Assembly: GCA_031552185.1 (NCBI GenBank)
Contig: JAVBMU010000024.1
Location: 185 to 64,184, forward strand
Reading direction: 5' to 3'
Source: Cellulomonadaceae bacterium
GTDB taxonomy: Bacteria; Actinomycetota; Actinomycetes; Actinomycetales; Cellulomonadaceae
DNA length: 64,000 nucleotides
A program made the position numbers and the translations under genes. The notes beneath the pieces were generated by a model. It was not told the DNA's origin, made no database searches, and saw nothing but the letters and a program-made list of their open reading frames with translations. Below are positions 14,352-64,000 of the stretch, piece by piece (positions within the stretch are counted from its first letter, which is position 1; each line of letters opens with the position of its first letter).

Positions 14352-16621
14352 ACCAGCTCCCTGGGGTCGAGTTGGGCGCGGACGGTCCCACCTTCCCGCC
14401 GGGCGGAGCGGACCGCCATCGACGCCGCGACCTGCGCGGCCAACGCCGCGCCCGCGGCGGCCGGGACGCGAATCGCGACCCGCACCTTCGGGTCCAGGGT
14501 GGGTTCGGCGGTGTGGACCTCGGTGGGTCCCAGGACGGCCTGCGGCGTGGCGAGTTCGATCCGGCCGACGACGGCGGCGACGGCCGCGCGGTCCCCCGTC
14601 ACCGCCGCCACCCGAACGGCCGGCGGCAGGCCGAGTTCGAGCCGGTCGGCGAATTCCCGGGCGGCCAGCCCGCCGGGATCCCACCGCACCAGGGCGCCGG
14701 TCGGCGCCGGGGCAGCGTCCCCGACCAACAGCACTTGGCCGCCGGCTGCCGCCGGCCGGACCAGGCTCGCCGCAGCGAGCCACCGGTGCAGTGCCCGGGT
14801 CGCCACGTCGAGCCCGACGGGCGTCGTGCTCGCCGCGGCGTCGAGCAGCAACGCGGCCGCGTAGCCCCCGGGTGCGGCGGGTTCGGCGCCCGGCGTCGCC
14901 ACCACCAGCGCGGGGCCGGCCGGTACCTCCGACAGCACGCCGCCGGGCGCGCTCGCGGCCGAGACCCGCACCGGCACGCCCGGGAAGGCACGGCCGAGTT
15001 CCTCGGCCGTGCGGGCCGAGCCGACCCGGATCGAGCGCAGGGCCGTCCCGCCGCAGGCCGGGCAGCTCCAGCCGCCGGGCAGCGCGCCGCACCAGGTGCA
15101 CTGCGGCCCGGCGCCGGCCGCGGGTACCGCGAGCGGGCCGTGGCAAACGGAGCACCGCGCCGGCTCCCGACAGCGGGCACAGGCCACCACGGGCAGGTAG
15201 CCGGCCCGCGGCACCTGCACCAGGACGGGCCCGGCGGCGAGGGCCGCCTTGGCCGCGCGCCAGGCCGCCGACGGGATCCGCGCGGCGGCGCCGGGACCCT
15301 CGTTGGCGAGTTCGGCTGAGGTCAGCGCCCGCACCCGCGGGCCGCGGGCGCGCAGAACGGCCCGGGGCGCGGCCAGTTCGCGCGCCCACCCGGATTCGAG
15401 CCGGGCCTGGGCCTCGACCGTGCGGCCGAGCGAACCGATCAGCATGGCGCACGTCTCCAGGCCGGCCCGAATCGCGAGCACATCCAGCGCCTGGGGGTAG
15501 GGCGCGCGCGGCTCGGTGAGCGTCTCCTCGCCGTCGTCCCACGTCACGATCAGGCCGAGGTCCCGGACGGGGGCGAAGGCGGCAGCCCGGGTGCCGACGA
15601 CGACGCGGGCGGAACCGCGCAGGGCGGCCAGGAAGGCCCGGTAGCGGGCCGCGGGACCCTGATCCGCGGTCAGCCTGACCACCGGCGCCGCTGTGTTCGA
15701 GCGGTCCGGCTCGGGCAGGCCGGCCGCGGCCAGGGCCGCGCAGACCCGCGCCACGTCGCGGGCATCCGGCACGACGACGAGCGCACCCCGGCCGCTGCGC
15801 ACCGCCACCGCGGCGGTTCCCGCGATCGCCGCTGCCCAATGCGGGCCGGCCGCGCCGGCCGCGCCCGGCAGGGCGGTCCACACCGCCCGCGGGGCGTGCC
15901 CGGCAGCGAGATGGGAAAGGAAGGCCGCCCCGCCCCGGTAGTCCGCCCACGCCGCGCCCGGCGTCGGCCCGGACCGGTCGCCGAACCCGGGAACGGATGC
16001 CGAATCGGGGCCGATCCGGGGCTCGGTCCCGGGCTCGGTCCCGGGCTCGACGGCCGGCGCCGCGGTCCCGGCCGCCTCGACCCGGGCATGCCGCGGCGGG
16101 ATTGCCAGCCGGAGCACGTCCGCGAGGGTGCCCGCGTACCGGTCCGCCACGGCCCGGGCCAGCCGCGCCACCTCGGGGGTCAGCACCGGTTCCGCCGAGA
16201 CGACCCGCCGCAGCGGCAGCAACCGACCCGGGTGCTCGCTCGCCGCCACCCGGGCCAGCAGGTAGCCGCCGACATCCTGCCCGCCGAACCGGGCCCGGAT
16301 CCGCACGCCGGGCTGCGCATCGGCGTCCATCGCGGCCGGAACGAGGTAATCGAAGACGCGGTCCAGGTGGGCAGGCTGCAGTTCGAGCGCGACCCGGGCG
16401 ATCGGGCGCTCGCCGGCGAGGGCCGGCTCGGCGCGGGACCGGGCGCCGGCCGCCCGGGCCTTCGCGGGCGGCGTCAATCCCGGCAACGCGCCCTGCGCCC
16501 CGATTTCGGTCGACGGCGGCCGCGCGGTGGTCGTTGCCGACGGCCCGGGCAACGTGCCCCGGCCGGCCTCGGTCGACGGCGCCGAGCCGGGCCGGGCGCC
16601 CGGGCCCGAACCGTCGCCCAT
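14348..16621 (-). CDS. priA: Primosomal protein N' (PriA)-like
   Basis: ORF 14348..16621. 'LDRVFDYLVP' 3'-DNA-binding-domain signature. Cys-rich zinc region 'CARCREPARCSVCHGPL...CTWCG...CPACGG'. Lies downstream of metK, as in other actinobacteria. Confidence 0.85.
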   Translation of the reverse strand: MGDGSGPGARPGSAPSTEAGRGTLPGPSATTTARPPSTEIGAQGALPGLTPPAKARAAGARSRAEPALAGERPIARVALELQPAHLDRVFDYLVPAAMDADAQPGVRIRARFGGQDVGGYLLARVAASEHPGRLLPLRRVVSAEPVLTPEVARLARAVADRYAGTLADVLRLAIPPRHARVEAAGTAAPAVEPGTEPGTEPRIGPDSASVPGFGDRSGPTPGAAWADYRGGAAFLSHLAAGHAPRAVWTALPGAAGAAGPHWAAAIAGTAAVAVRSGRGALVVVPDARDVARVCAALAAAGLPEPDRSNTAAPVVRLTADQGPAARYRAFLAALRGSARVVVGTRAAAFAPVRDLGLIVTWDDGEETLTEPRAPYPQALDVLAIRAGLETCAMLIGSLGRTVEAQARLESGWARELAAPRAVLRARGPRVRALTSAELANEGPGAAARIPSAAWRAAKAALAAGPVLVQVPRAGYLPVVACARCREPARCSVCHGPLAVPAAGAGPQCTWCGALPGGWSCPACGGTALRSIRVGSARTAEELGRAFPGVPVRVSAASAPGGVLSEVPAGPALVVATPGAEPAAPGGYAAALLLDAAASTTPVGLDVATRALHRWLAAASLVRPAAAGGQVLLVGDAAPAPTGALVRWDPGGLAAREFADRLELGLPPAVRVAAVTGDRAAVAAVVGRIELATPQAVLGPTEVHTAEPTLDPKVRVAIRVPAAAGAALAAQVAASMAVRSARREGGTVRAQLDPRELV

Positions 16622-30878: not shown

Positions 30879-32897
30879 TCACGGCCGCCGGCGGGCCGCG
30901 GCGACCAACGCCCGCAATCCCAGCAGGACGCCGATCAGCAGCGCCCCGGACCCGACGGCCTGGGTAAGCCGGACGTTCGGAGTCAACCTGATGCCCGTAT
31001 CGGCGGCCAGCAACACCACCCCGGCCACGATCGCGGCCACCGCCAGAAGGGTCACGATCGCGCGGGACACGAGTTCCTCGATGAAGGACCGATCCCCGGG
31101 ATCGGCCAGCAGCCGCACGTTCAGGCTGATCCGGCCCTGTTCGAGATCCCGGACCAGCCGGTCCACCCGGCGCGGCAGCCGGGCGAGCAGCGGCGTCAAC
31201 TCCACCAATTCCGCCACCGCGGCGTCCTTCAGTGCGGCCGGTTCGAGCGCGCGGCGCAGAATCGGGCGCGCCTCGCGCTGGGCGCCGGCGACGAGGTCGA
31301 ACGTCGGGTCGAGCAATCCGAGCGTGCCGTCGAGCGCTGCGATCGCGCGAAACGCGGCGGCGAGCTGGGCCGGCACCGCGAATTCGTGTCGCCGGAGCAA
31401 GCCGAGTACCGACCCCAACACCGCGGCGCCCCCCGCCGCTCCGGTGCCCGCCCCGAACCGGGCGACGATCTCGGCCACCGAACGGTTGAACTCCGCCTCC
31501 TCGAACCGCACCGGCCGATCGACCAGTTCCAGCAGCGCGTCGCCGACGACGGCGGCGTCCTGGCGTTGGAGCCCGTGCAGCAGCACCCCGAGCCATTGGC
31601 GCGACCCCGCGTCGAGCCGACCGACCGACCCGAAGTCGAGCAATGCCAACGTGTTCGAATCCACCAGCAGCACGTTCCCCGGATGCAGGTCCGCGTGGAA
31701 GGTGCCGGTCAGCAGGATCTGGGTCAGGCACTCATGCAGGAGCGCCGCGGCCAGCTCGGCCCGGTCCGTCACGCTCAGGGTGGCGATCCGGTCCGCGGCG
31801 CCACCGAGGGCCGGCCCCCGCACGCGTTCCATCACCAGCACCGTGGCGGAACTCAACTCGTCGATCACGGCCGGGATCTTGACCTGCGCCGTACCACCCA
31901 CGGCCACGTCCAGTCGGAGCGGGCCGAGGTCGAGCCGCCGGTGCTGAGCCGCCGCCTGGCCGGCCGCAACCACGCGCTGGTTCTGCGCCTCGACGCGATA
32001 GTCCAGTTCCTCGTGCAGCGAGGCCGCGAATCCCTCGGCGAGGTGGGCAATGCGGATCTCGCGCCCCCAGTTGGTGGCGCGCTGCGCCCAGCGGGCCATC
32101 CGAAGCAGGATCTGCATGTCCACCCGCACCTGTTCGGCGGCGCCCGGGCGCTGCACCTTGACCACGACGTCGCGCCCATCGTGCAGCCGCGCGGCATACA
32201 CCTGAGCGACCGATGCGGCCGCGATCGGCTCGGGGTCGAACGTCGCGAAGACGGCGTCGACCGGTCGCCCGAGGCCCGCCTCCACCGCCGGGGCGATCTC
32301 CGCCCAGCCCACGACGTCGACGGCGGTCTGCAGCGTCGACAACTCGCGGACGAATTCCGCCGGCAGCAGATCCGGGCGGGTGGACGCCAACTGCCCGATC
32401 TTGACGAACGTCACCCCGGCATCGACCAGCGCGCCGCGCAGCGCGACGGCGACTTCTGCCGTCGCCGAGTGCCGGCGGGCGCGCAGCCCGCCCAGCCCGT
32501 GGCGAATAAAGATGCCGGCGATCTGCGCATACCGTCGTGAATGTCGACGGTTGGCCCGCCGGCGGCGAAGCCAATCGGCCGGCGTCGGGACGGTCCCGGT
32601 CGGCACGACGATCTCGGCCAGGACCAGGAGCGCGACCCCGCCGACAAAGATCCAACCGAAGGTCAGCGCGACGATGACCAGGCTCGGCGCGGGATCGGCC
32701 AGGACCTCGGCCTCGTCGGTCGGCAACTCCGTGCTGCGCGCGACCCCATTGACGACCGGCGACGTAATACCCAACAGGATCAGGCCGACGACGAGTGATC
32801 GGATCCAGCCGATCGGCGCGGCCAGCATCCGGCGGGCCACCGCAGCCGCGGCCCATGCGGTCGCCAACGTGGTCACTGCGACGAGAATCACCGTCAT
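30879..32897 (-). CDS. ABC1/UbiB-family atypical kinase with N- and C-terminal TM segments
   Basis: Last 672 aa of ORF 30879..33503. 'FVKIGQLASTRPDLLP', 'IAAASVAQVYAARL', 'VVVKVQRPG', 'FHADLHPGNVLL'. ATG at 32897 with GGAGGG upstream. Confidence 0.85.
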   Translation of the reverse strand: MTVILVAVTTLATAWAAAAVARRMLAAPIGWIRSLVVGLILLGITSPVVNGVARSTELPTDEAEVLADPAPSLVIVALTFGWIFVGGVALLVLAEIVVPTGTVPTPADWLRRRRANRRHSRRYAQIAGIFIRHGLGGLRARRHSATAEVAVALRGALVDAGVTFVKIGQLASTRPDLLPAEFVRELSTLQTAVDVVGWAEIAPAVEAGLGRPVDAVFATFDPEPIAAASVAQVYAARLHDGRDVVVKVQRPGAAEQVRVDMQILLRMARWAQRATNWGREIRIAHLAEGFAASLHEELDYRVEAQNQRVVAAGQAAAQHRRLDLGPLRLDVAVGGTAQVKIPAVIDELSSATVLVMERVRGPALGGAADRIATLSVTDRAELAAALLHECLTQILLTGTFHADLHPGNVLLVDSNTLALLDFGSVGRLDAGSRQWLGVLLHGLQRQDAAVVGDALLELVDRPVRFEEAEFNRSVAEIVARFGAGTGAAGGAAVLGSVLGLLRRHEFAVPAQLAAAFRAIAALDGTLGLLDPTFDLVAGAQREARPILRRALEPAALKDAAVAELVELTPLLARLPRRVDRLVRDLEQGRISLNVRLLADPGDRSFIEELVSRAIVTLLAVAAIVAGVVLLAADTGIRLTPNVRLTQAVGSGALLIGVLLGLRALVAAARRRP

Positions 32898-55770: not shown

Positions 55771-58014
55771 GTGTTCAACAGCCTCGGCCGCGGCGTCGCG
55801 CGCCACCCCTGGATCACCGTTGCCGCGTGGCTCGTGCTGACGATCGTCGGCTTCTCCTTTGCGGTGCTCGGCCTTCGCGGGGACGGGCTTTTCGACCGGG
55901 TCACCACCGGCGCACCGCTGGTCCCCGGCTCGGACAGCAAGCGCGCCGCCGACATTCTGTCCGACGAGCGCATCCTCGGGCCGCGGATCACCCTCCTGGT
56001 GGAAGGGGTCGACGCGCGGGACCCCGATCTGGTGGCGGCCATGGCCGACATCAACCGGGACCTCGAGGCGATCCCCGACGCCCAGCCGCCGGTCGACCCG
56101 TACGTTATCCCCGAGGGCCTCGACGACCCGCGGGCGGCGGCCATGATCGCCGCGGACGGGCGTGGTTTCGTCGCGTACGTGGACGTCGACGCCGGCCTCG
56201 GCGACCAGGAGGGCGCAACGGCGCACACCGTCGCCGAGCGACTGCGCGATGTCCCAAGCGAGTTGCGGGCCGAGGTGCCCTCTGCCGCCCGGGCGGAGGG
56301 GATCGTCAGTTCGAATGCGCTGATCGTCTCCGAGATCACCGACCAGGTGCGGGCCGATCTGGAGACGGGCGAGGTCTTCTCGTTGCCGGTCGCGCTGCTC
56401 GTGATGGTGATCGTATTCGGTGGGTTCCTCGCCGCCGGGATGCCGATGTTCGGGGCGTTCGCGTCGATCGGCGCGGGGCTCGGCGCGCTGCTCGGCATCA
56501 CCTATGTGATGGATGTCGACGCGTCCGTGGTCAACGTGGTGACCGTGCTCGGCCTCGGGCTGTCGATCGACTACGGCCTGCTCGTCGTCTCCCGCTATCG
56601 GGAGGAGTTACACCGCCTGGTCGCCGCGGGCGCGGACCCGCCGGCGGCGGTGCGAACCGGCGGCGACGGCGTCGTCGACGCCGCGTTGGTGCGCACCATG
56701 AGCACGGCGGGGCGCACGATCACCTTCTCCGCCCTGACCGTGGCCATCGCGATCTCCGGGCTGTTGGTCTTCCGGCCGCCGATCCTGCGGTCCATCGGCG
56801 CGGGCGCCCTCGCCGTCGTGCTGATCGCCTTCCTGACGGCGCTGACGCTGGTGCCCGCGGTGCTGCATCTGACGGGTCGGCGGCTCGCCCGGCCGAGCCG
56901 GCTCGCCGGGGTCCCCGGGATCCGGCGGATGCTCGCCCGGACGGCGGACGTCCAGTCCGACGACGGCGCGCTTGCCCGGCTCGCGGCCTGGGTGCAGCGG
57001 CGGCCCTGGCCGGTGCTGATCGGCACCTCGGCGATCCTGCTGGTGCTTGCCGCCCCGGTGCTCAGCCTGCAAATGCGCAACACCGGCCTCGACCTGCTGC
57101 CCCGCGACTCGGACCAGCGTGCGTTCGTGACCGCGCTCGGCGAACAGTATCCGGCCATGCGCTGGCCGCAGATCGAGATCGTGGCGAAGGCCGACCCGGC
57201 GACGGCGCAGGCGTGGTCCGCCGCCCTGAACGGGCTGGACCATGTCGAGCAGGTCGACGCTCCGCAGCAGACCGGGGAGTACGTGGCGATCGGCGTGCAC
57301 ACCGACTCGCCCGATGCAGGCGGCCCCGAGGCCGTCGCGCTGGTGCACGAGATCCGGGGTCTACAGCCCGATTTCCAGATGTGGGTCGGCGGGCAGGCGG
57401 CCGGTCAGATCGACTTCCTCGACGCCCTCGCCCAACGCGTGTGGTGGGCCGTCGCGATCGTCGTCGTCGCCGTGCTCGCGCTGCTGTTCCTGATGACCGG
57501 ATCCGTGGTGATCCCGATCAAGACGCTGCTGACGAACGCCCTGTCGCTCTGCGCCTCGCTCGGGGTTCTGGTCTGGGCCTTCCAGTTCGGGCATCTGCAG
57601 GGCGTGCTCGGCTTCACTCCGGTTGGCGGGATCGAGACCTACGTCGTCGCGCTGTTCGTCGCCTTCTCGTTCGGGCTGGCGATGGACTACGAAGTCTTCC
57701 TGCTCGCCCGGGTCAAGGAACTGCACGACAGCGGGCTGAGCAACGACGACGCCATTCGGATCGGCCTGCAACGTTCCGGCCGGATCATTACGTCCGCGGC
57801 GGCGATCATCATCGTCGTCTTCGCGGGCTTCATGCTCGGCGAGCTGCTGGTGATCAAGGAGGTCGGCTTCGCGCTCGCCGTCGCGGTGGCGATCGACGCG
57901 ACCATCGTTCGGTTGCTGCTCGTCCCGGCGACGATGACGCTGCTGGGCAACGTCAACTGGTGGGCGCCGAAGCCGCTTCGCCGCCTCTACGACCGGCTCG
58001 AGTTCAGCCATTAG
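55771..58014 (+). CDS. MMPL/RND-superfamily membrane transporter
   Basis: ORF 55450..58014 trimmed to GTG 55771 ('VFNSLGRGVARHPWITVAAWLVL'). Two blocks of about 6 TM helices, each followed by a soluble loop, with 'GLSIDYGLLVVSRYREE' and 'GLAMDYEVFLLARVKE'. Confidence 0.85.
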   Translation: MFNSLGRGVARHPWITVAAWLVLTIVGFSFAVLGLRGDGLFDRVTTGAPLVPGSDSKRAADILSDERILGPRITLLVEGVDARDPDLVAAMADINRDLEAIPDAQPPVDPYVIPEGLDDPRAAAMIAADGRGFVAYVDVDAGLGDQEGATAHTVAERLRDVPSELRAEVPSAARAEGIVSSNALIVSEITDQVRADLETGEVFSLPVALLVMVIVFGGFLAAGMPMFGAFASIGAGLGALLGITYVMDVDASVVNVVTVLGLGLSIDYGLLVVSRYREELHRLVAAGADPPAAVRTGGDGVVDAALVRTMSTAGRTITFSALTVAIAISGLLVFRPPILRSIGAGALAVVLIAFLTALTLVPAVLHLTGRRLARPSRLAGVPGIRRMLARTADVQSDDGALARLAAWVQRRPWPVLIGTSAILLVLAAPVLSLQMRNTGLDLLPRDSDQRAFVTALGEQYPAMRWPQIEIVAKADPATAQAWSAALNGLDHVEQVDAPQQTGEYVAIGVHTDSPDAGGPEAVALVHEIRGLQPDFQMWVGGQAAGQIDFLDALAQRVWWAVAIVVVAVLALLFLMTGSVVIPIKTLLTNALSLCASLGVLVWAFQFGHLQGVLGFTPVGGIETYVVALFVAFSFGLAMDYEVFLLARVKELHDSGLSNDDAIRIGLQRSGRIITSAAAIIIVVFAGFMLGELLVIKEVGFALAVAVAIDATIVRLLLVPATMTLLGNVNWWAPKPLRRLYDRLEFSH

Positions 58015-58232
58015 ATGAGTGAATCCGAATTGCTGCGGCGTCGATCGTCACAAGCTGCCCCGCCCGCCGCAGCACACCTCAGGTAAGTGCGCGCGTTGCT
58101 GCCCGATGCGAGATGAGTGGTTTGCCCGGCTCGGGGAGCAGTTTCTCTGGCGGCGGTCGCGGGCGTGCGGCGGTGGCGAGTGCTTCGAATGGCAGTGGTA
58201 CCCCACACCCGATCCCTGACCGCATACGACCA

Positions 58233-60005
58233 TTAGGAATCACTCGTCCGGGGCTTGGCGTCGACGCCGGCCTCCTTGCGCTGTTCGGGGGTGATCGGCG
58301 CGGGCGCCTGAGTGAGCGGGTCGTAGCCGCCGCCCGACTTCGGGAACGCGATCACGTCCCGGATCGACTCCGCCCCGGTGAGTAGGGCGACGATCCGGTC
58401 CCAGCCGAAGGCGATCCCGCCGTGCGGCGGCGCGCCGTACTGGAACGCGTCCAACAGGAATCCGAACTTTTCCTGCGCCTCGGCCTCGCCGATCCCCATC
58501 ACCTCGAACACGCGCCGCTGCACGTCCCTGCGGTGGATACGGATCGAACCGCCGCCGATCTCGTTGCCGTTGCAGACGATGTCGTACGCATAGGCGAGGG
58601 CCTCGCCGGGCTCGGCCTCGAACCGGTCGATCCACTGCGGCGTCGGCGCGGTGAACGCGTGGTGCACTGCGGTCCAGGCGCCGCCGCCGACGGCGACGTC
58701 ATCGTCCTCGCCGACCGGCTTGAACAGGGGGGCGTCCACGACCCAGACGAACGACCACGCGTCGTCGTCGATCTGGCCGGTGCGCCGGGCGATCTCGAGG
58801 CGCGCGGCGCCCAGCAGCGCCCGGGTCTCGGTGCTGCGGCCGGCGCCGAAGAAGACCGCGTCCCCCGGCTGGGCGCCGGTCGCCGCGGCCAGGCCGGAGC
58901 GCTCGGCGTCGGACAGGTTCTTGGCCACCGGGCCGCCGAGCTCACCGTTCTCGCCGATCGTGACGTACGCGAGACCCTTGGCCCCGCGGGACTTCGCCCA
59001 GTCCTGCCACGCGTCGAACTGGCGACGCGGCTGCGCGGCGCCGCCGGGCATGACGACAGACCCGACATGCTGCGCCTGGAAGACGCGGAACGGCGTGTCC
59101 TTGAAGTACTCGGTGAGGTCGACCAGTTCGTTGCCGAAGCGCAGGTCGGGCTTGTCCGTGCCGTAGCGGCGCATCGCCTCCGCGTACGTCATCCGCGGGA
59201 TGGGCATCTCGATCCGATGCCCGATCAGCTCCCACAGGGCGACCAGCACCTGTTCCGCAACGGCGATCACGTCGTCCTGCTCGACGAAGCTCATCTCGAT
59301 GTCGAGCTGAGTGAACTCCGGCTGGCGGTCGGCGCGGAAGTCCTCATCGCGGTAGCAGCGGGCGATCTGGTAATACCGCTCCATCCCGGCCACCATGAGC
59401 AATTGCTTGAACAGCTGCGGGGACTGCGGCAGCGCGTACCACGAGCCCGGGGCGAGGCGGGCCGGGACCAAGAAGTCGCGGGCACCCTCCGGAGTGGACC
59501 GCGTCAGCGTCGGCGTCTCGATCTCGACGAAGCCCGCCGCGTCCAGGACGCGCCGCGCCGCCTGGTTCACCTTCGCCCGCAGGCGCAGCGCCTGCGCCAT
59601 GCGCGGCCGGCGGATGTCGAGGTACCGGTGCCGCAACCGCGCCTCCTCGCCGACGGTTTCGGTCCCGTCCAGCGCGGTCGAGACCTGGAACGGCAGCGGC
59701 GCCGACTCGTTCAGCACGACGACGTCGCTTGCCACGACCTCGATCTCACCGGTCGCCAGGTGCGGGTTGGCGTTGCCCTCGGGGCGGCGCGAGATCTCGC
59801 CCGTGACCTGGAGGACGAACTCGGAGCGCAGCGGGTGCGCGATGGCCTCGTCCCGGATCACCACCTGCGCGATGCCGGAGGCGTCCCGAAGGTCGATGAA
59901 GGCCACTCCCCCGTGATCGCGACGGCGGTCCACCCAACCCGTGAGGGTGACGGTCTGACCGATGTGGTCGGCTCGCAACGAGCCGGCCGTCCGGGTGCGC
60001 AGCAC
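58233..60005 (-). CDS. aspS: Aspartate--tRNA ligase
   Basis: Last 590 aa of ORF 58233..60746. '[22 protein letters not shown]', '[14 protein letters not shown]', '[20 protein letters not shown]', 'GGGSIRIH'. Start at GTG 60005, with an alternative ATG at 60038. Confidence 0.95.
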
Positions 60006-60109
60006 GGAGGCGTCCTTTCGCAGGTGGAGGGTCCGCATGCGGATCGGACCCGGCGCGCGCCCTTGCCGACGGCGCGCCACGAGTCTAGTGGCCTTCGGCC
60101 GCGGGTCGC

Positions 60110-61432
60110 TCAGGCGAACGCTGCGACCGGCCCGGCGACCGGCGCAATCGGCGCGACGGTTGACGCAACGGTGGGCGCGACGGTTGACCCGCCCGGCGCG
60201 GTCAGCGCGGCGGTCGAGGCCGCGGCGCCCACCATGGACACCACGGTGGGCGCAGGCAGGATGGCGCAGTCGTGGCTGACGAAGCCGTTCGCAACGAAAT
60301 CCCCCGCTTGGGTTGACAGCCCGATCATCCGCCGGTCTCCGAGCGGTTCGATCCGCGCCACCCGGAATCCTGCGTTCGACCGCACGGCGCGGCCAACCGC
60401 GCGGTCTCGACCCGTGGCCGGCGCGAGCAGCGCAAGCAGACGGCTCCGATCGGCTCCGACGACCCGTACATCGTCGGCCGGACCCGCTCCCGAACCTGGT
60501 CTCAGCCCGGATCCCGGCAGGGTCCGGACACCGAGCCTGGCAAGGCTCGCCCGAACCTCTGCGGCCATGTCCTTGGTCCGGCAGCCGAACCGCACCGCGG
60601 CCCCGCCGAGGCCAGTCGCATCGAGCACTCCGGAGCAGAACCCGGCGGACCACTCCGCGCCGGGGTCGGCCGGCGTCGTGACGATCGCCCGGACGATGCC
60701 GTACTGGGAGGTGCCGCAGACCAAGCAGCCCACCGCCCGGGTGCACGGAGCACCGTCCTGACCGAACGGCCGCAACCGCGTCACGACGCCGAACTCGGCG
60801 AGGTAGTCCCGCGCCCTGGCCAGCGCCCGGAGATCCCCGTATGCGAGCCGAAGGACCGCCGGCCGGACCAGCCCGCGGCGCCGCGCACAGGCGCTCGCCC
60901 GGGGCGAGACGTGCGCCCTGATCAGCCCCGCCAGGTAGCCACTCGCGAACGCGTCCCGCCCCGACTCCGGCCTCGGGCGCAGGGGCAGCCCGCCGATGCC
61001 GCGGACCGCATTGCTCGGGGTCAGGTATGCCCGCCGCACCTCACCGGGACGGGCCGGAACGACGGCCTTCCAGCCACGGTCGGTGAGGAACCGGTGATCG
61101 GCGGCGGCCACGACGGATGTCCCGTCCGCCACGGTCAGCCGAAAGGCCGGGCACGTCCGCGTCCACCGGTCGAGGACCGTCGTCGCGACGTAGCGCCGGG
61201 TCCGACCGGCGTACTCGGTGCCCACGACGACGTCGCCCGCCTCGATCCGCGCCAGTGGCACCAATCGCCCGTCCGCGGTCAGGAGGAGAACGCCGGGATC
61301 AAGACAGGACGAGCGCGCGACCGCGCCGCCGCGCGCTTCCCCGTCGAGCCATGCCGCGCCCACTGCCCCGCTGCTTGCCGTGCCGCCGGATGATGTCGCC
61401 TCGTCCCGTCCCACCTGCATAGTCGAACACAT
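60110..61432 (-). CDS. Free-standing intein-like protein: Hint domain split by a degenerate double-LAGLIDADG homing-endonuclease-like insert
   Basis: ORF 60110..61900 trimmed to the region downstream of hisS, with ATG at 61432 or 61420. Intein block A '[21 protein letters not shown]', block B '[13 protein letters not shown]'. LAGLIDADG-like '[11 protein letters not shown]' and '[11 protein letters not shown]'. Blocks F/G '[19 protein letters not shown]|C'. The flanks of 38 and 52 aa are low complexity. Confidence 0.7.
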
Positions 61433-61438
61433 GTTCGA
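61423..61438. promoter_or_regulatory. Perfect actinobacterial LexA SOS box TCGAAC-ACAT-GTTCGA
   Basis: The palindrome is read directly. It lies 26 nt downstream of the hisS stop, overlaps the ATG at 61432 and sits 3 nt upstream of the ATG at 61420. A TTGCCA (-35-like) hexamer lies just upstream on the minus strand. Confidence 0.6.
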
Positions 61439-61463
61439 ACAATTGGCAAGGCCCTGCGATCGC

Positions 61464-62837
61464 TCACTGCTCGCTCGACGACGCGGGGACAACTCGCGGC
61501 CACAGGTCCGCCGCGGGCGGCGCCCACACCGCCGGGTCGGCGTCGACCTGCGCGCCGGACCGGATGTCCTTGACCTGGTGCGCGGCCTCGCCGGCGGACG
61601 GGAACCAGACGAATGGAATGCCCCGGCGGTCCGCGTGCCGGATCTGCTTGCCGAAGCGCGCCGCGCTCGGCGCCACCTCCACCGGCACGCCCCGCCCGCG
61701 CAACGCCGCGGCGACCGCCTCCGAGGCGGGCCGGGACCCCTCATCGGCCACCGCCACCAGCACCGCGCTCGGCACGGACCGGGTGGCCCGCACCAGGCCG
61801 GCGCCGAGCAACCGGGACACGAGCCGCGACACCCCGATCGACAGGCCGACCCCCGGATAGGTCGCGGTGCCCTCGGTGGCCAGCGTGTCGTACCGCCCAC
61901 CCGAGCAGATCGAGCCCAGCGACTCGTGGCCGACGAGCACCGTCTCGTAGACGGTCCCCGTGTAGTAGTCCAGCCCGCGGGCGATCTTGAGATCCGCGAG
62001 CACCGCGCCGGGCGCGCGCTCCCCGACCGCGGTGAGCAGCGCGGCCAGTTCCGCCAACCCCTGATCCATCAGAACCGACGCCACGCCGTGGCGCGCCGCC
62101 ACGCTGCGCACCCGATCGACGACCCGCAGGTCCGCCCCGCTGATCGACGCCAGTTCCAGGCACGCCTGCGCCTGCTGCTCGGTCGCGCCCGCGTGCGCCA
62201 CCAATGCCTCGGCGACGGCCTGCGGCCCGATCTTGTCCAACTTGTCGATCTCGCGCAGCACCGCATCGGGATCCGCCAGGCCGAGCCCGCGGTAGAACCC
62301 CTCGGCCACCCGGCGGTTATTCACCAGGATCCGAGCCTCGGGCATCCCGATCGGGCGCAGCGCAGCGAGCGCCGCGGCGATCACGAGCGCCACCTCAACC
62401 TCGACGTGATAGGGCAGCTCACCCGCGCCGACGACGTCGATATCGGCCTGGACGAATTCCCGGAACCGCCCTTCCTGGGGCCGTTCCCCGCGCCACACCT
62501 TCTGGATCTGATACCGCCGGAAGGGAAAGGTCAGGTGCCCGGCGTTCTCCAGCACGTAACGGGCGAAGGGGACCGTCAGATCGAAGTGCAGCCCGAGCGA
62601 GCGTTCGTCGCGCGCGGGGGCGGCGTCGTCGGCCTGCAACCGGTGCAGAACGTAGACCTCCTTGGACGTCTCGCCCTTGCGCAGGAGTTGGTCCAGTGGC
62701 TCCACGGCGCGCGTTTCGATCCCGGCGAATCCGTGCAACTCGAAGGTCCGTCGCAGCACATCCAGGACGTGCTGTTCCACGATCCGACCGTCGGGAAGCC
62801 ATTCGGGAAAACCGGAGAGAGGTGTCGGCCTGGCCAT
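61464..62837 (-). CDS. hisS: Histidine--tRNA ligase
   Basis: ORF 61464..62837. 'GFPEWLP', class II motif 2 'FRRYQIQKVWRGERPQEGRFREFVQADIDVVG', 'GGRYD', 'VGLSIGVSR'. Confidence 0.95.
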   Translation of the reverse strand: MARPTPLSGFPEWLPDGRIVEQHVLDVLRRTFELHGFAGIETRAVEPLDQLLRKGETSKEVYVLHRLQADDAAPARDERSLGLHFDLTVPFARYVLENAGHLTFPFRRYQIQKVWRGERPQEGRFREFVQADIDVVGAGELPYHVEVEVALVIAAALAALRPIGMPEARILVNNRRVAEGFYRGLGLADPDAVLREIDKLDKIGPQAVAEALVAHAGATEQQAQACLELASISGADLRVVDRVRSVAARHGVASVLMDQGLAELAALLTAVGERAPGAVLADLKIARGLDYYTGTVYETVLVGHESLGSICSGGRYDTLATEGTATYPGVGLSIGVSRLVSRLLGAGLVRATRSVPSAVLVAVADEGSRPASEAVAAALRGRGVPVEVAPSAARFGKQIRHADRRGIPFVWFPSAGEAAHQVKDIRSGAQVDADPAVWAPPAADLWPRVVPASSSEQ

Positions 62838-62901
62838 GGGACCCGATCCTTCCAGATCGGCCGGCGCTGGGCCGAACTGTTTGCGCGCCGGCCGGTTCGG
62901 G

Positions 62902-63615
62902 TCAGATCAGGCTCCGCAGGAAGGGGTTGACGCGGCGCTCCCGCGCCATGGTCGTCTCGGGTCCGTGCCCCGGCAGCACGCGCCATTCGTCCGGCAGGCC
63001 GCCGATGACGTCCCCCAACGTTCGGTTCATGGCGTCGCCGTCACCGCCGGGCAGGTCATAGCGACCGATGGTCCCGGCGAAAAGGACATCGCCCGTCAGG
63101 AGGGCACCGGACTCGGGCGTCCCGACGGCGTAGAGGGTCGAGCCCTCGGTGTGGCCCGGGGCGTGGATCGCGGTGAGTTCCACAGCCCCGAATCGCAGCG
63201 TTGTGGTGGCCGCCCCGGCGGCGATCGGCTGCACCACCGCGGGGGGCACGTAGGCGCCCGGGTCGATCCCCACCGCGCGCAGTTGGGCGTCCATCCCGTC
63301 GCCGCCGGGGCCGAACGCGATGGTCCCGAGCGGGTCGTCGAGCCGGTAGGCGTCGTCGGCGTGCACGACGAACGGAACCCCGGCCCGCGCACAGAGCGGT
63401 CCGGCATCCCAGGTGTGATCCGCGTGGCCGTGGGTGGCCAGCACCGCCCGGGGGGTCAGCCGCATGGCCGCGATCAGCAACTCGACCTCCGGCGCGACCC
63501 CCGCGCCGGCGTCGACGACGACGCACTCCGGTCCCACCACGACCAGATAGCAGTTGGTTCCGTAGAAGGGTGCGACGATGGCGCGGATGATCGGGGCCGG
63601 GCGTGAGGTGTCCAC
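62902..63615 (-). CDS. MBL-fold metallo-hydrolase (glyoxalase II-like)
   Basis: ORF 62902..63615. 'TNCYLV', 'ATHGHADH', 'HAPGHTEGS', 'GDVLFAGTIGR'. Confidence 0.85.
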   Translation of the reverse strand: MDTSRPAPIIRAIVAPFYGTNCYLVVVGPECVVVDAGAGVAPEVELLIAAMRLTPRAVLATHGHADHTWDAGPLCARAGVPFVVHADDAYRLDDPLGTIAFGPGGDGMDAQLRAVGIDPGAYVPPAVVQPIAAGAATTTLRFGAVELTAIHAPGHTEGSTLYAVGTPESGALLTGDVLFAGTIGRYDLPGGDGDAMNRTLGDVIGGLPDEWRVLPGHGPETTMARERRVNPFLRSLI

Positions 63616-63749
63616 ACCCGAAGGCTAGTCCGGCCGGAGGGAGCGCGAGGCGCGTCCAGATGCTGTCACGGTGCCTAGACTGTCCGTACCGACCGCGGTC
63701 GTTCCGCGGATTCCGCGCGCGCCCACGGGTGCATGAGCGAGGAGTTGCC

Positions 63750-63971
63750 ATGGTGAGGTCGAGTTGCCGGGGGCGGGCGGGCTTCGCCCTGCCGGTCGGC
63801 GCGCGACCGGCCCCGACGGCGGCCCTCCGCGGGATCCGGACCCGGCCGGGCGACGCCTGCGGCGTCGGCATCACGTTGGGCCTGGCGTCGGCCGGGCTGT
63901 CTCTGACCCGGAGCCCGGGCGGGCCTGCCGCCGCGGTCCTGGTCATCATCGAAGGAGTCAGTACCCCATGA
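63750..63971 (+). CDS. Possible small membrane protein (73 aa), uncertain
   Basis: In-frame ATG at 63750 within ORF 63603..63971, with GAGGAG 7 nt upstream. One hydrophobic segment 'GVGITLGLASAGLSL'. Its stop overlaps the next ATG (ATGA). The sequence is Arg/Gly/Pro-rich, so it may be spurious. Confidence 0.3.
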   Translation: MVRSSCRGRAGFALPVGARPAPTAALRGIRTRPGDACGVGITLGLASAGLSLTRSPGGPAAAVLVIIEGVSTP

Positions 63972-64000
63972 GCGATCCCACCGCGAACCTGGAGAACTCC
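63968..64000 (+). CDS. 5' end of an unidentified CDS running off the window
   Basis: ATG at 63968 with GAAGGAG about 10 nt upstream, translating 'MSDPTANLENS'. Too short to assign a function. Confidence 0.3.
   Translation, partial: MSDPTANLENS

Follow-up and report, generated by a model that had tools for sequence, protein, structure and literature searches.

A decayed intein ORF between hisS and aspS as the probable remnant of an SOS-regulated radical SAM gene in a Cellulomonadaceae bacterium

A 64,000-nucleotide stretch of a Cellulomonadaceae genome (contig JAVBMU010000024.1 of GenBank assembly GCA_031552185.1; hereafter the window) carries, between the aminoacyl-tRNA synthetase genes hisS and aspS, an open reading frame (ORF) that had been described from its letters as an orphan intein-like gene. 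The ORF, referred to here as the relic, occupies 60110..61420 of the minus strand (436 codons plus a stop codon at 60110-60112) and consists of a short N-extein remnant, an intein, and a C-terminal tail. We propose, with a probability of roughly 0.68, that it represents the in-situ remnant of an SOS-regulated, intein-containing radical SAM repair gene of the Rv2578c/SplB type, and is thus a decayed intein/host pseudogene. The proposal draws on homology, synteny, an SOS box, the loss of the host domain and of catalytic residues, and drift in the intein; it extends to a probable inactivity and lack of function of what is left.

Family, fold and catalytic residues of the intein

The intein is degenerate and full-length, spanning 346 amino acids (aa; 60269..61306, minus strand) with a Hint splicing domain and a LAGLIDADG endonuclease domain, and it is homologous to the intein of the Rv2578c/SplB family. 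All intein blocks are present where they had first been placed, ordered and in one frame: block A at aa 39-51 of the ORF, block B at aa 106-117, the two LAGLIDADG helices at aa 161-171 and 260-270, and the F/G end at aa 384, followed by Cys385. The NCBIfam model NF038136 ('intein-containing Rv2578c family radical SAM protein') matched ORF residues 30-386 with an E of 1.4e-45. This match was confined to profile positions 66-335 of 574, which are the intein part, and its score was 156 bits against a curated cut-off of 700 bits. A hidden Markov model (HMM) built from 106 family inteins, which we took as functional comparators, matched end to end (positions 1-344) in one frame at about 263-264 bits (E 4e-82). 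Insertions and deletions of the relic relative to this HMM are all in frame, and no off-frame matches to it, the mark of paired frameshifts, were found inside the intein.

Homologues in protein databases are radical SAM proteins of 600-720 aa from Actinoplanes, Couchioplanes and other genera, at 33-37% identity and with E down to 1e-53; homologues from the further searches had 33-40% identity to the relic. The relic aligns exactly to the inteins of these homologues, which are inserted as ...NPYRGCSHACxY|C(intein)...SHN|CFAR..., and the alignment equates its +1 Cys with the third Cys of the host CxxxCxxC motif.

Generic models were silent on the relic. No Pfam family, including PF14890, PF01079 and PF05203, matched the ORF or the isolated intein at E<=10; TIGR01445 stayed sub-threshold on the ORF (E=0.17, 12.9 bits against a 24.5-bit cut-off); and a sequence search of PDB returned only sub-threshold matches to the Mtu RecA and DnaB inteins (E about 0.08). 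Two intein-bearing homologues, one from Promicromonospora (locus L007) and one listed as P0001, gave PF14890 scores below the gathering cut-off (31.6 and 28.1 bits, respectively, against 35.8) and weaker ones for PF05203 and PF01079. PF14528 (LAGLIDADG_3), which did not detect the relic, reached 28.1 bits in P0001 (cut-off 22.5) and 21.7 bits, just below, in the Promicromonospora protein. The Pfam Radical_SAM domain passed its cut-off in both homologues and was not found by Pfam in the relic ORF. An AlphaFold2 model, computed from a nine-sequence alignment and used for fold class alone, had a mean predicted local distance difference test score (pLDDT) of 52.5, with 80-89 in the Hint segments and about 21 in the flanks; the best PDB matches of this low-confidence model in Foldseek were PI-SceI, TliVMA and PI-PfuI, with E down to 7e-7. 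The identity of the intein is drawn from NF038136, the homologues, the family HMM and the Foldseek match, and the evidence specific to the family is strong. The profile search that had been suggested as a check came out positive for NF038136 and the family HMM, and negative for the Pfam Hint and LAGLIDADG models and TIGR01445. In a 90% clustering of proteins, the ORF (P0012) is represented by a 55-aa low-complexity protein, with a 45-aa 'decarboxylase gamma subunit' as the other member; this clustering artefact hides the ORF from representative-based searches, in which the query did not recover itself.

We scored residue conservation against 91 non-redundant family members. Block A (61268..61306, minus strand) keeps Cys1, and block B (61070..61105, minus strand) keeps its His. 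The original prediction had reported a block-B change from Thr to Ala; the Ala is correct, and the residue that it replaces in the family is Ser (in 90%), not Thr. Its report that both acidic residues of the endonuclease and the terminal Asn are replaced holds in full: in LAGLIDADG motif 1 (60908..60940, minus strand) the catalytic Asp, present in 99% of the family, is His; in motif 2 (60611..60643, minus strand) the catalytic Glu (97%) is Thr; and in blocks F/G (60269..60325, minus strand) the terminal Asn (100%) is Asp. Blocks F/G keep the penultimate His and show two losses beyond those reported earlier, of the block-F Asp (100%), now Gly, and of an invariant Thr, now Ala. Altogether 7 of 38 invariant residues are gone, as are 13 of the 72 conserved at >=95%, catalytic ones among them. 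The changed terminal Asn and block-F Asp leave the relic without the catalytic set of an active class-1 intein, and the helices that lie at the family positions are without the acidic residues that define a LAGLIDADG homing endonuclease. From these losses, together with the drift in composition described below, we infer that the intein probably no longer splices, no longer cuts DNA, and has no function of its own.

Identity and loss of the host gene

The original prediction had recognised no host protein; synteny and the SOS box now point to one. We identify the host as the LexA-regulated Rv2578c/SplB-type radical SAM gene, whose orthologous locus the relic occupies. The upstream anchor is hisS (61464..62837, minus strand), and the downstream anchor is aspS (58233..60038, minus strand; GTG at 60005 the likely start, as in Cellulomonas), which begins 71-104 nt past the stop codon of the relic. 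The best matches of hisS are 81% identical, with none closer, and it falls alongside Cellulomonas in the Micrococcales. In Cellulomonas fimi (L162), the order of genes is an MBL-fold hydrolase, hisS, one divergent gene, an intein-less Radical_SAM gene and aspS, and a related metagenomic contig (L164) has the same order; the intein-less proteins of these two loci are 355 or 388 aa long. Isoptericola has an intein-bearing radical SAM gene between hisS and aspS. In Promicromonospora, the SOS box and a 718-aa intein-bearing gene come directly after hisS, as in the window; aspS was not found in the fetched Promicromonospora locus. Inspection of the hisS-aspS interval in relatives, a check named with the original prediction, turned up a radical SAM gene at this place, with or without an intein.

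A perfect actinobacterial LexA (SOS) box, TCGAAC-N4-GTTCGA, lies at 61423..61438 in the 40-bp gap after hisS and is the sole perfect match in the window. Both the box at the 5' end of the ORF and the position between two synthetase genes had been noted before and stand. Minus-strand ATGs in frame with the relic occur at 61432, overlapped by the box, and at 61420, where the NCBI record starts its called 436-aa protein. The start codon of the Cellulomonas orthologues aligns with neither of these; it aligns with the GTG at 61412-61414, and the stretch from the window's box to this GTG matches, gap-free, the box and start codon (MRWDGQ...) of the two intein-less Cellulomonas genes, in both of which the box is perfect. 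The distance from box to ancestral GTG in the window is 24 nt, first base to first base of the codon. Of 119 loci, 44 carried a LexA box with at most one mismatch at the 5' end of the orthologue, compared with 0 in control regions. The Rv2578c/Rv2579 site of M. tuberculosis is bound by LexA in vivo by chromatin immunoprecipitation sequencing and shows RecA-dependent induction (Smollett et al. 2012, PMC3381160), and Novikova et al. (2016, PMC4760082) count those of 'SplB' (COG1533) among the inteins common in actinobacteria. Synteny, the LexA box and the family of the intein together place the ORF at the orthologous locus of the SOS-regulated SplB/Rv2578c gene. A repeated GGGAC raised the possibility of a +1 frameshift right after the start, which we dismissed since the GTG and the codon phase are both preserved in the ungapped register to the SOS box. 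Elsewhere in the window, an SOS-like site with one mismatch (TCGAACGTCGGGTCGA) at 31297-31312 falls inside long overlapping ORFs and is probably a chance occurrence.

What is left of the host is confined to two short flanks, whose lengths of 38 and 52 aa agree with those first reported. The N-extein remnant (61307..61420, minus strand) has 38 aa, or 36 from the ancestral GTG, against about 78-93 aa in complete family genes, and the distance from the box to Cys1 is 132 nt in the window compared with 200-275 nt in complete genes. Both N-extein iron-sulfur (Fe-S) cysteines of CxxxCxxC, at the YRGCSHACxY position, are gone. The 52-aa C-terminal tail (60113..60268, minus strand) starts with the kept +1 Cys, the third Cys of the former CxxxCxxC; these 52 codons stand against about 290 in complete genes, and the radical SAM domain is short of about 240 codons. 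The first ~20 codons of the tail are faintly extein-like and the remainder is Ala/Pro/Thr/Val filler, with tandem repeats at 60123-60225 of periods 7 nt and 12 nt in 2.4-3.4 copies, which suggests filler generated by slippage rather than former coding sequence. The features of a radical SAM enzyme are thus reduced to one cluster cysteine, the +1 Cys, with no core domain. Had the flanks been the two halves of a conserved protein, the ORF would be an ordinary intein gene; this is not so, for the relic is without the radical SAM domain and has one cluster cysteine of three. By its residues and domains, the relic would not count as a functional intein, a LAGLIDADG endonuclease or a member of the radical SAM family.

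When we looked for the lost exteins in the other frames and in the rest of the window, nothing but noise came up. We measured residual extein similarity by ungapped nucleotide comparison anchored at the junctions. The last 60 nt of the N-extein gave a marginal signal (0.356 against a null of 0.275, p=0.04), as did the first 60 nt of the C-extein (0.40 against 0.284, p=0.01), and nt 61-153 of the C-extein were not significant. Gapped DNA alignments of the C flank with homologues were inconsistent and driven by GC content.

A history that would produce this structure begins with a radical SAM gene that had hisS and aspS as its neighbours and a LexA box in front of it. Its product would have contained a class-1 intein, equipped with a LAGLIDADG endonuclease domain and placed immediately ahead of the third Cys of the Fe-S/SAM motif CxxxCxxC. 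The host may have died through deletion of about 42 codons from the N-extein, with loss of the remaining cluster cysteines, and through deletion of the ~290-codon C-extein save its first few codons, in place of which a short tandem-repeat tail would now run into a stop upstream of aspS. The intein would have persisted as a long ORF, decaying, its composition drifting towards GC-rich codons. The relic is probably still repressed by LexA, and probably still transcribed through the SOS response or by read-through from hisS. The original reading of the ORF as an intein husk left behind after erosion of the host gene is supported by these data, and the host can now be named.

Decay of the intein and competing explanations

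The relic is the most divergent member of the intein family that we found. It shares 38-42% identity with orthologous inteins (compared in Promicromonosporaceae, Microbacteriaceae and Micromonosporaceae), which share 50-77% among themselves; hisS shares 74-81% with its relatives. Identity to the family consensus is 0.38 for the relic compared with 0.55-0.74 for the 91 non-redundant members, and its 264 bits on the family HMM compare with 340-570 (median 528). At columns conserved at >=90%, its replacements are not more conservative than single-nucleotide changes made at random (p=0.57). Which residues are retained follows the GC content of their codons: 34 of 38 G/A/R/P residues are kept and 7 of 18 F/Y/M/I/N/K residues (Fisher p=1.5e-4). 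GC at codon positions 1/2/3 is.75/.61/.84 in the relic intein, about.62-.67/.49-.53/.85-.89 in orthologous inteins from equally GC-rich genomes, and.77/.49/.90 in hisS. Over the whole ORF, third-position GC is 0.846, below hisS (0.899) and aspS (0.937), as had been pointed out. In simulations that started from an Isoptericola-like intein, 0.2-0.3 neutral GC-biased substitutions per site reproduced the composition of the relic, and 6-10% of runs remained stop-free. Changes at conserved sites accordingly resemble random GC-biased drift, and retention tracks codon GC and not function.

Copies at earlier stages of decay exist in other lineages, three of them (P0143, P0157 and P0164) brought to light by an exhaustive search of 1.84 billion representatives. 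A second, independent orphan intein copy of 411 aa (P0143) was found in two metagenome samples (L165 6001-7236 and L166 1317-2552); its N-extein is 14 aa (VRWDHPRRSGGAEV), starting VRWD, about 58 aa of its C-extein remain, and its score on the intein HMM is 444 bits. A perfect SOS box lies 31 nt upstream of it, and unrelated DUF397 and helix-turn-helix (HTH) genes start 10 bp past its stop. P0157 (L167 1070-2326; 395 bits), also behind a perfect SOS box, has the first Fe-S Cys changed to Arg (NPYRGC to QPYRGR) and a C-extein that has an internal deletion and is about 29 aa long. In P0164 (326 bits) a frameshift falls seven residues into the C-extein. Cryobacterium algoritolerans (L018 5893-7603) has a C-extein deletion and a frameshift, and the intein-containing radical SAM gene at L149 5869-7779 has two frameshifts. 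Finally, L153 3191-4433 and L154 376-1627, from two samples, share one frameshift within the intein, and their C-extein is truncated. The host gene with its intein seems prone to pseudogenisation. Host-truncated copies form a decay series, and the window copy is the most decayed.

Several observations weigh against simple decay. The frame is fully intact over the 1308 nt of the ORF, with zero stops and zero frameshifts, whereas much less diverged pseudogene copies are already frameshifted; by a rough estimate, several frameshifting indels would be expected at 0.2-0.3 neutral substitutions per site. The LexA box has stayed free of mismatches, the ancestral start codon has kept its frame with the intein, and none of Cys1, the block-B His, the penultimate His and Cys+1 has been lost. 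Homology that can still be recognised breaks off almost precisely at the two edges of the intein: nucleotide similarity is 0.36 (N) and 0.40 (C) in the extein flanks compared with 0.49 and 0.63 at the adjoining intein ends, and near-invariant residues are kept at 4 of 15 positions in the N-extein compared with 59 of 72 in the intein. Exteins of intact genes are conserved at least as well as the intein. Either it is by chance that the deletions stopped at the intein, or constraint on the intein outlasted that on its host. The searched collections also hold no close relative of the relic ORF: full-length relatives above ~40% identity were absent from metagenome_contigs (single-protein query), from an exhaustive HMMER search of 1.84 billion representatives, and from the matches listed for an alignment query of genome_contigs. 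The intact frame is explained in part by ascertainment, as the ORF was flagged for looking intact and relics are searched for through their inteins, and in part by the low rate at which stops arise in DNA of 73% GC. Beyond that, the open frame is what appears to stay unexplained by decay.

These points would fit better if selection had kept the ORF open, which we regard as unlikely, if the most serious of the alternatives. The product might be an exapted, non-splicing Hint/LAGLIDADG protein under LexA control with a new role in the DNA-damage response, for example as a DNA-binding or self-cleaving factor, reached by a route like the origin of yeast HO; or the ORF might serve as a translated spacer, in which early termination or a frameshift would harm the essential aspS downstream through polarity or an out-of-frame fusion. 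In its favour, the frame has survived the strongest divergence in the family, which milder relics have not managed, the other two same-strand frames hold 8 and 2 stops with one open into aspS, homology is kept exactly over the intein between nearly randomised flanks, the LexA box is perfect and the start codon in frame, and the Hint parts still reach a pLDDT of 80-89. Against this stand conserved-site substitutions that are indistinguishable from random GC-biased drift, the loss of catalytic residues for both activities, the want of any homologue above 40% identity with the same architecture in the collections named above or other sign of a conserved new family, the 6-10% chance of staying stop-free under substitutions alone, and the ascertainment bias. 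As for polarity, a consensus scan of 59800-61700 found no promoter-like or terminator-like site, a result that is uninformative for high-GC actinobacteria. The HO-like domestication that had been offered as the other half of the original prediction accordingly finds no positive support.

The four kept residues would also suit an intein that still splices, or at least cleaves, releasing an Ala/Gly/Pro/Thr-rich peptide of ~90 aa or the free intein, and a few natural inteins are reported to be functional with a C-terminal Asp or Gln. We think this very improbable. The terminal Asn and the block-F Asp and Thr are changed among the losses counted above, splicing would join exteins of low complexity that have no homologues and are predicted to be disordered (pLDDT about 21), and the analogous intein of Arth_1007 neither spliced nor cleaved even with two residues reverted (PMC3196547). 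Least credible of all is an assembly or sequencing artefact, in which the real genome would hold an intact intein-containing radical SAM gene and the truncations would be mis-assembly. The window does come from a 64.7-kb contig of a draft or metagenome-assembled genome and the C-terminal tail is repetitive; however, the independent Logan assembly SRR23967707 (L081) is base-for-base the same from 60159 to 64000, which takes in the complete intein along with the N-extein and most of the tail, so that the unusual structure of the ORF is not a sequencing accident. Heavy point divergence, lost cysteines and composition drift go beyond what mis-assembly produces, and the flanking hisS and aspS are intact and syntenic.

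Known relatives in kind, and the surroundings of the relic

The closest precedent for a decayed intein/host pseudogene is Arth_1007 of Arthrobacter sp. FB24, described by Tori & Perler (2011, PLoS One 6:e26361, PMC3196547) as the first decayed pseudogene of an intein to be retained by a genome. Like it, the relic has a recognisable intein, exteins that are too short or unrelated, catalytic losses and elevated divergence. Both are full-length inteins with an endonuclease domain, both belong to Micrococcales, both have lost catalytic residues, and in both the exteins are too short to make a protein (52+14 aa in Arth_1007, 38+52 aa here). The two differ in origin: Arth_1007 is class-3 and phage-derived, in a prophage remnant, whereas the relic is class-1-like (Cys1) and chromosomal. 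The host protein of Arth_1007, which was annotated solely through its similarity to inteins, could not be identified, whereas the host of the relic, its LexA box and its hisS-aspS position can be reconstructed from relatives, and intermediate stages of decay occur in other lineages. The inactivity of Arth_1007 was shown experimentally; that of the relic is deduced from its sequence. The relic is an object of the Arth_1007 kind, a rare genetic fossil of a sort described before and no novel protein type; it adds a member to the known, though very sparsely documented, class of decayed intein pseudogenes.

With the Rv2578c/SplB inteins (NF038136) the relic shares homology over all 344 HMM positions, the order of blocks, the +1 Cys, the SOS box and the neighbourhood; it differs in having no radical SAM host, in scoring 156 bits against the 700-bit cut-off, and in its lost catalytic residues. 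Yeast HO, a domesticated relative of the VMA1 intein, is conserved across species; its LAGLIDADG site has stayed active, and the protein has acquired a zinc-finger DNA-binding domain. Each is a free-standing gene with Hint and LAGLIDADG parts and no host protein to splice, but the relic has lost both catalytic acidic residues, has gained repeat filler alone and is without conserved relatives. Bacterial intein-like (BIL) domains likewise have a Hint fold outside a classical conserved host site, and BIL structures were among the weaker Foldseek matches; they have no endonuclease domain and form sequence families of their own in variable proteins, whereas the relic is an orthologue of a true intein at its ancestral locus.

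Inteins usually reside in essential proteins, and models of the homing cycle predict their degeneration and precise loss; to our knowledge, intein 'corpses' are almost never seen. The relic and its milder copies (P0143, P0157, P0164, L018, L149, L153/154) line up as a natural series of decay stages within one intein family, whose host is dispensable and SOS-regulated, and they show what happens when it is the host gene, not the intein, that is lost. They also carry a warning for annotation: the relic is entered in NCBI as a called protein, and annotation that goes by intein similarity alone could give related relics a wrong label as radical SAM or intein proteins. Should the intact frame prove to be selected, the relic would be a rare bacterial example of intein exaptation.

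The neighbourhood of the relic is overall more compact than its Cellulomonas counterpart. The window is without the divergent gene (peptidase or TspO) that L162 and L164 have between hisS and the radical SAM gene (61421-61463 in the window), and without the acetyltransferase gene that they have between aspS and an MMPL gene (58014-58233). An Rfam search at gathering threshold gave no match across the whole 64-kb window; the sole tRNA gene of the window is tRNA-Ser(CGA), at 15337-15436 on the minus strand.

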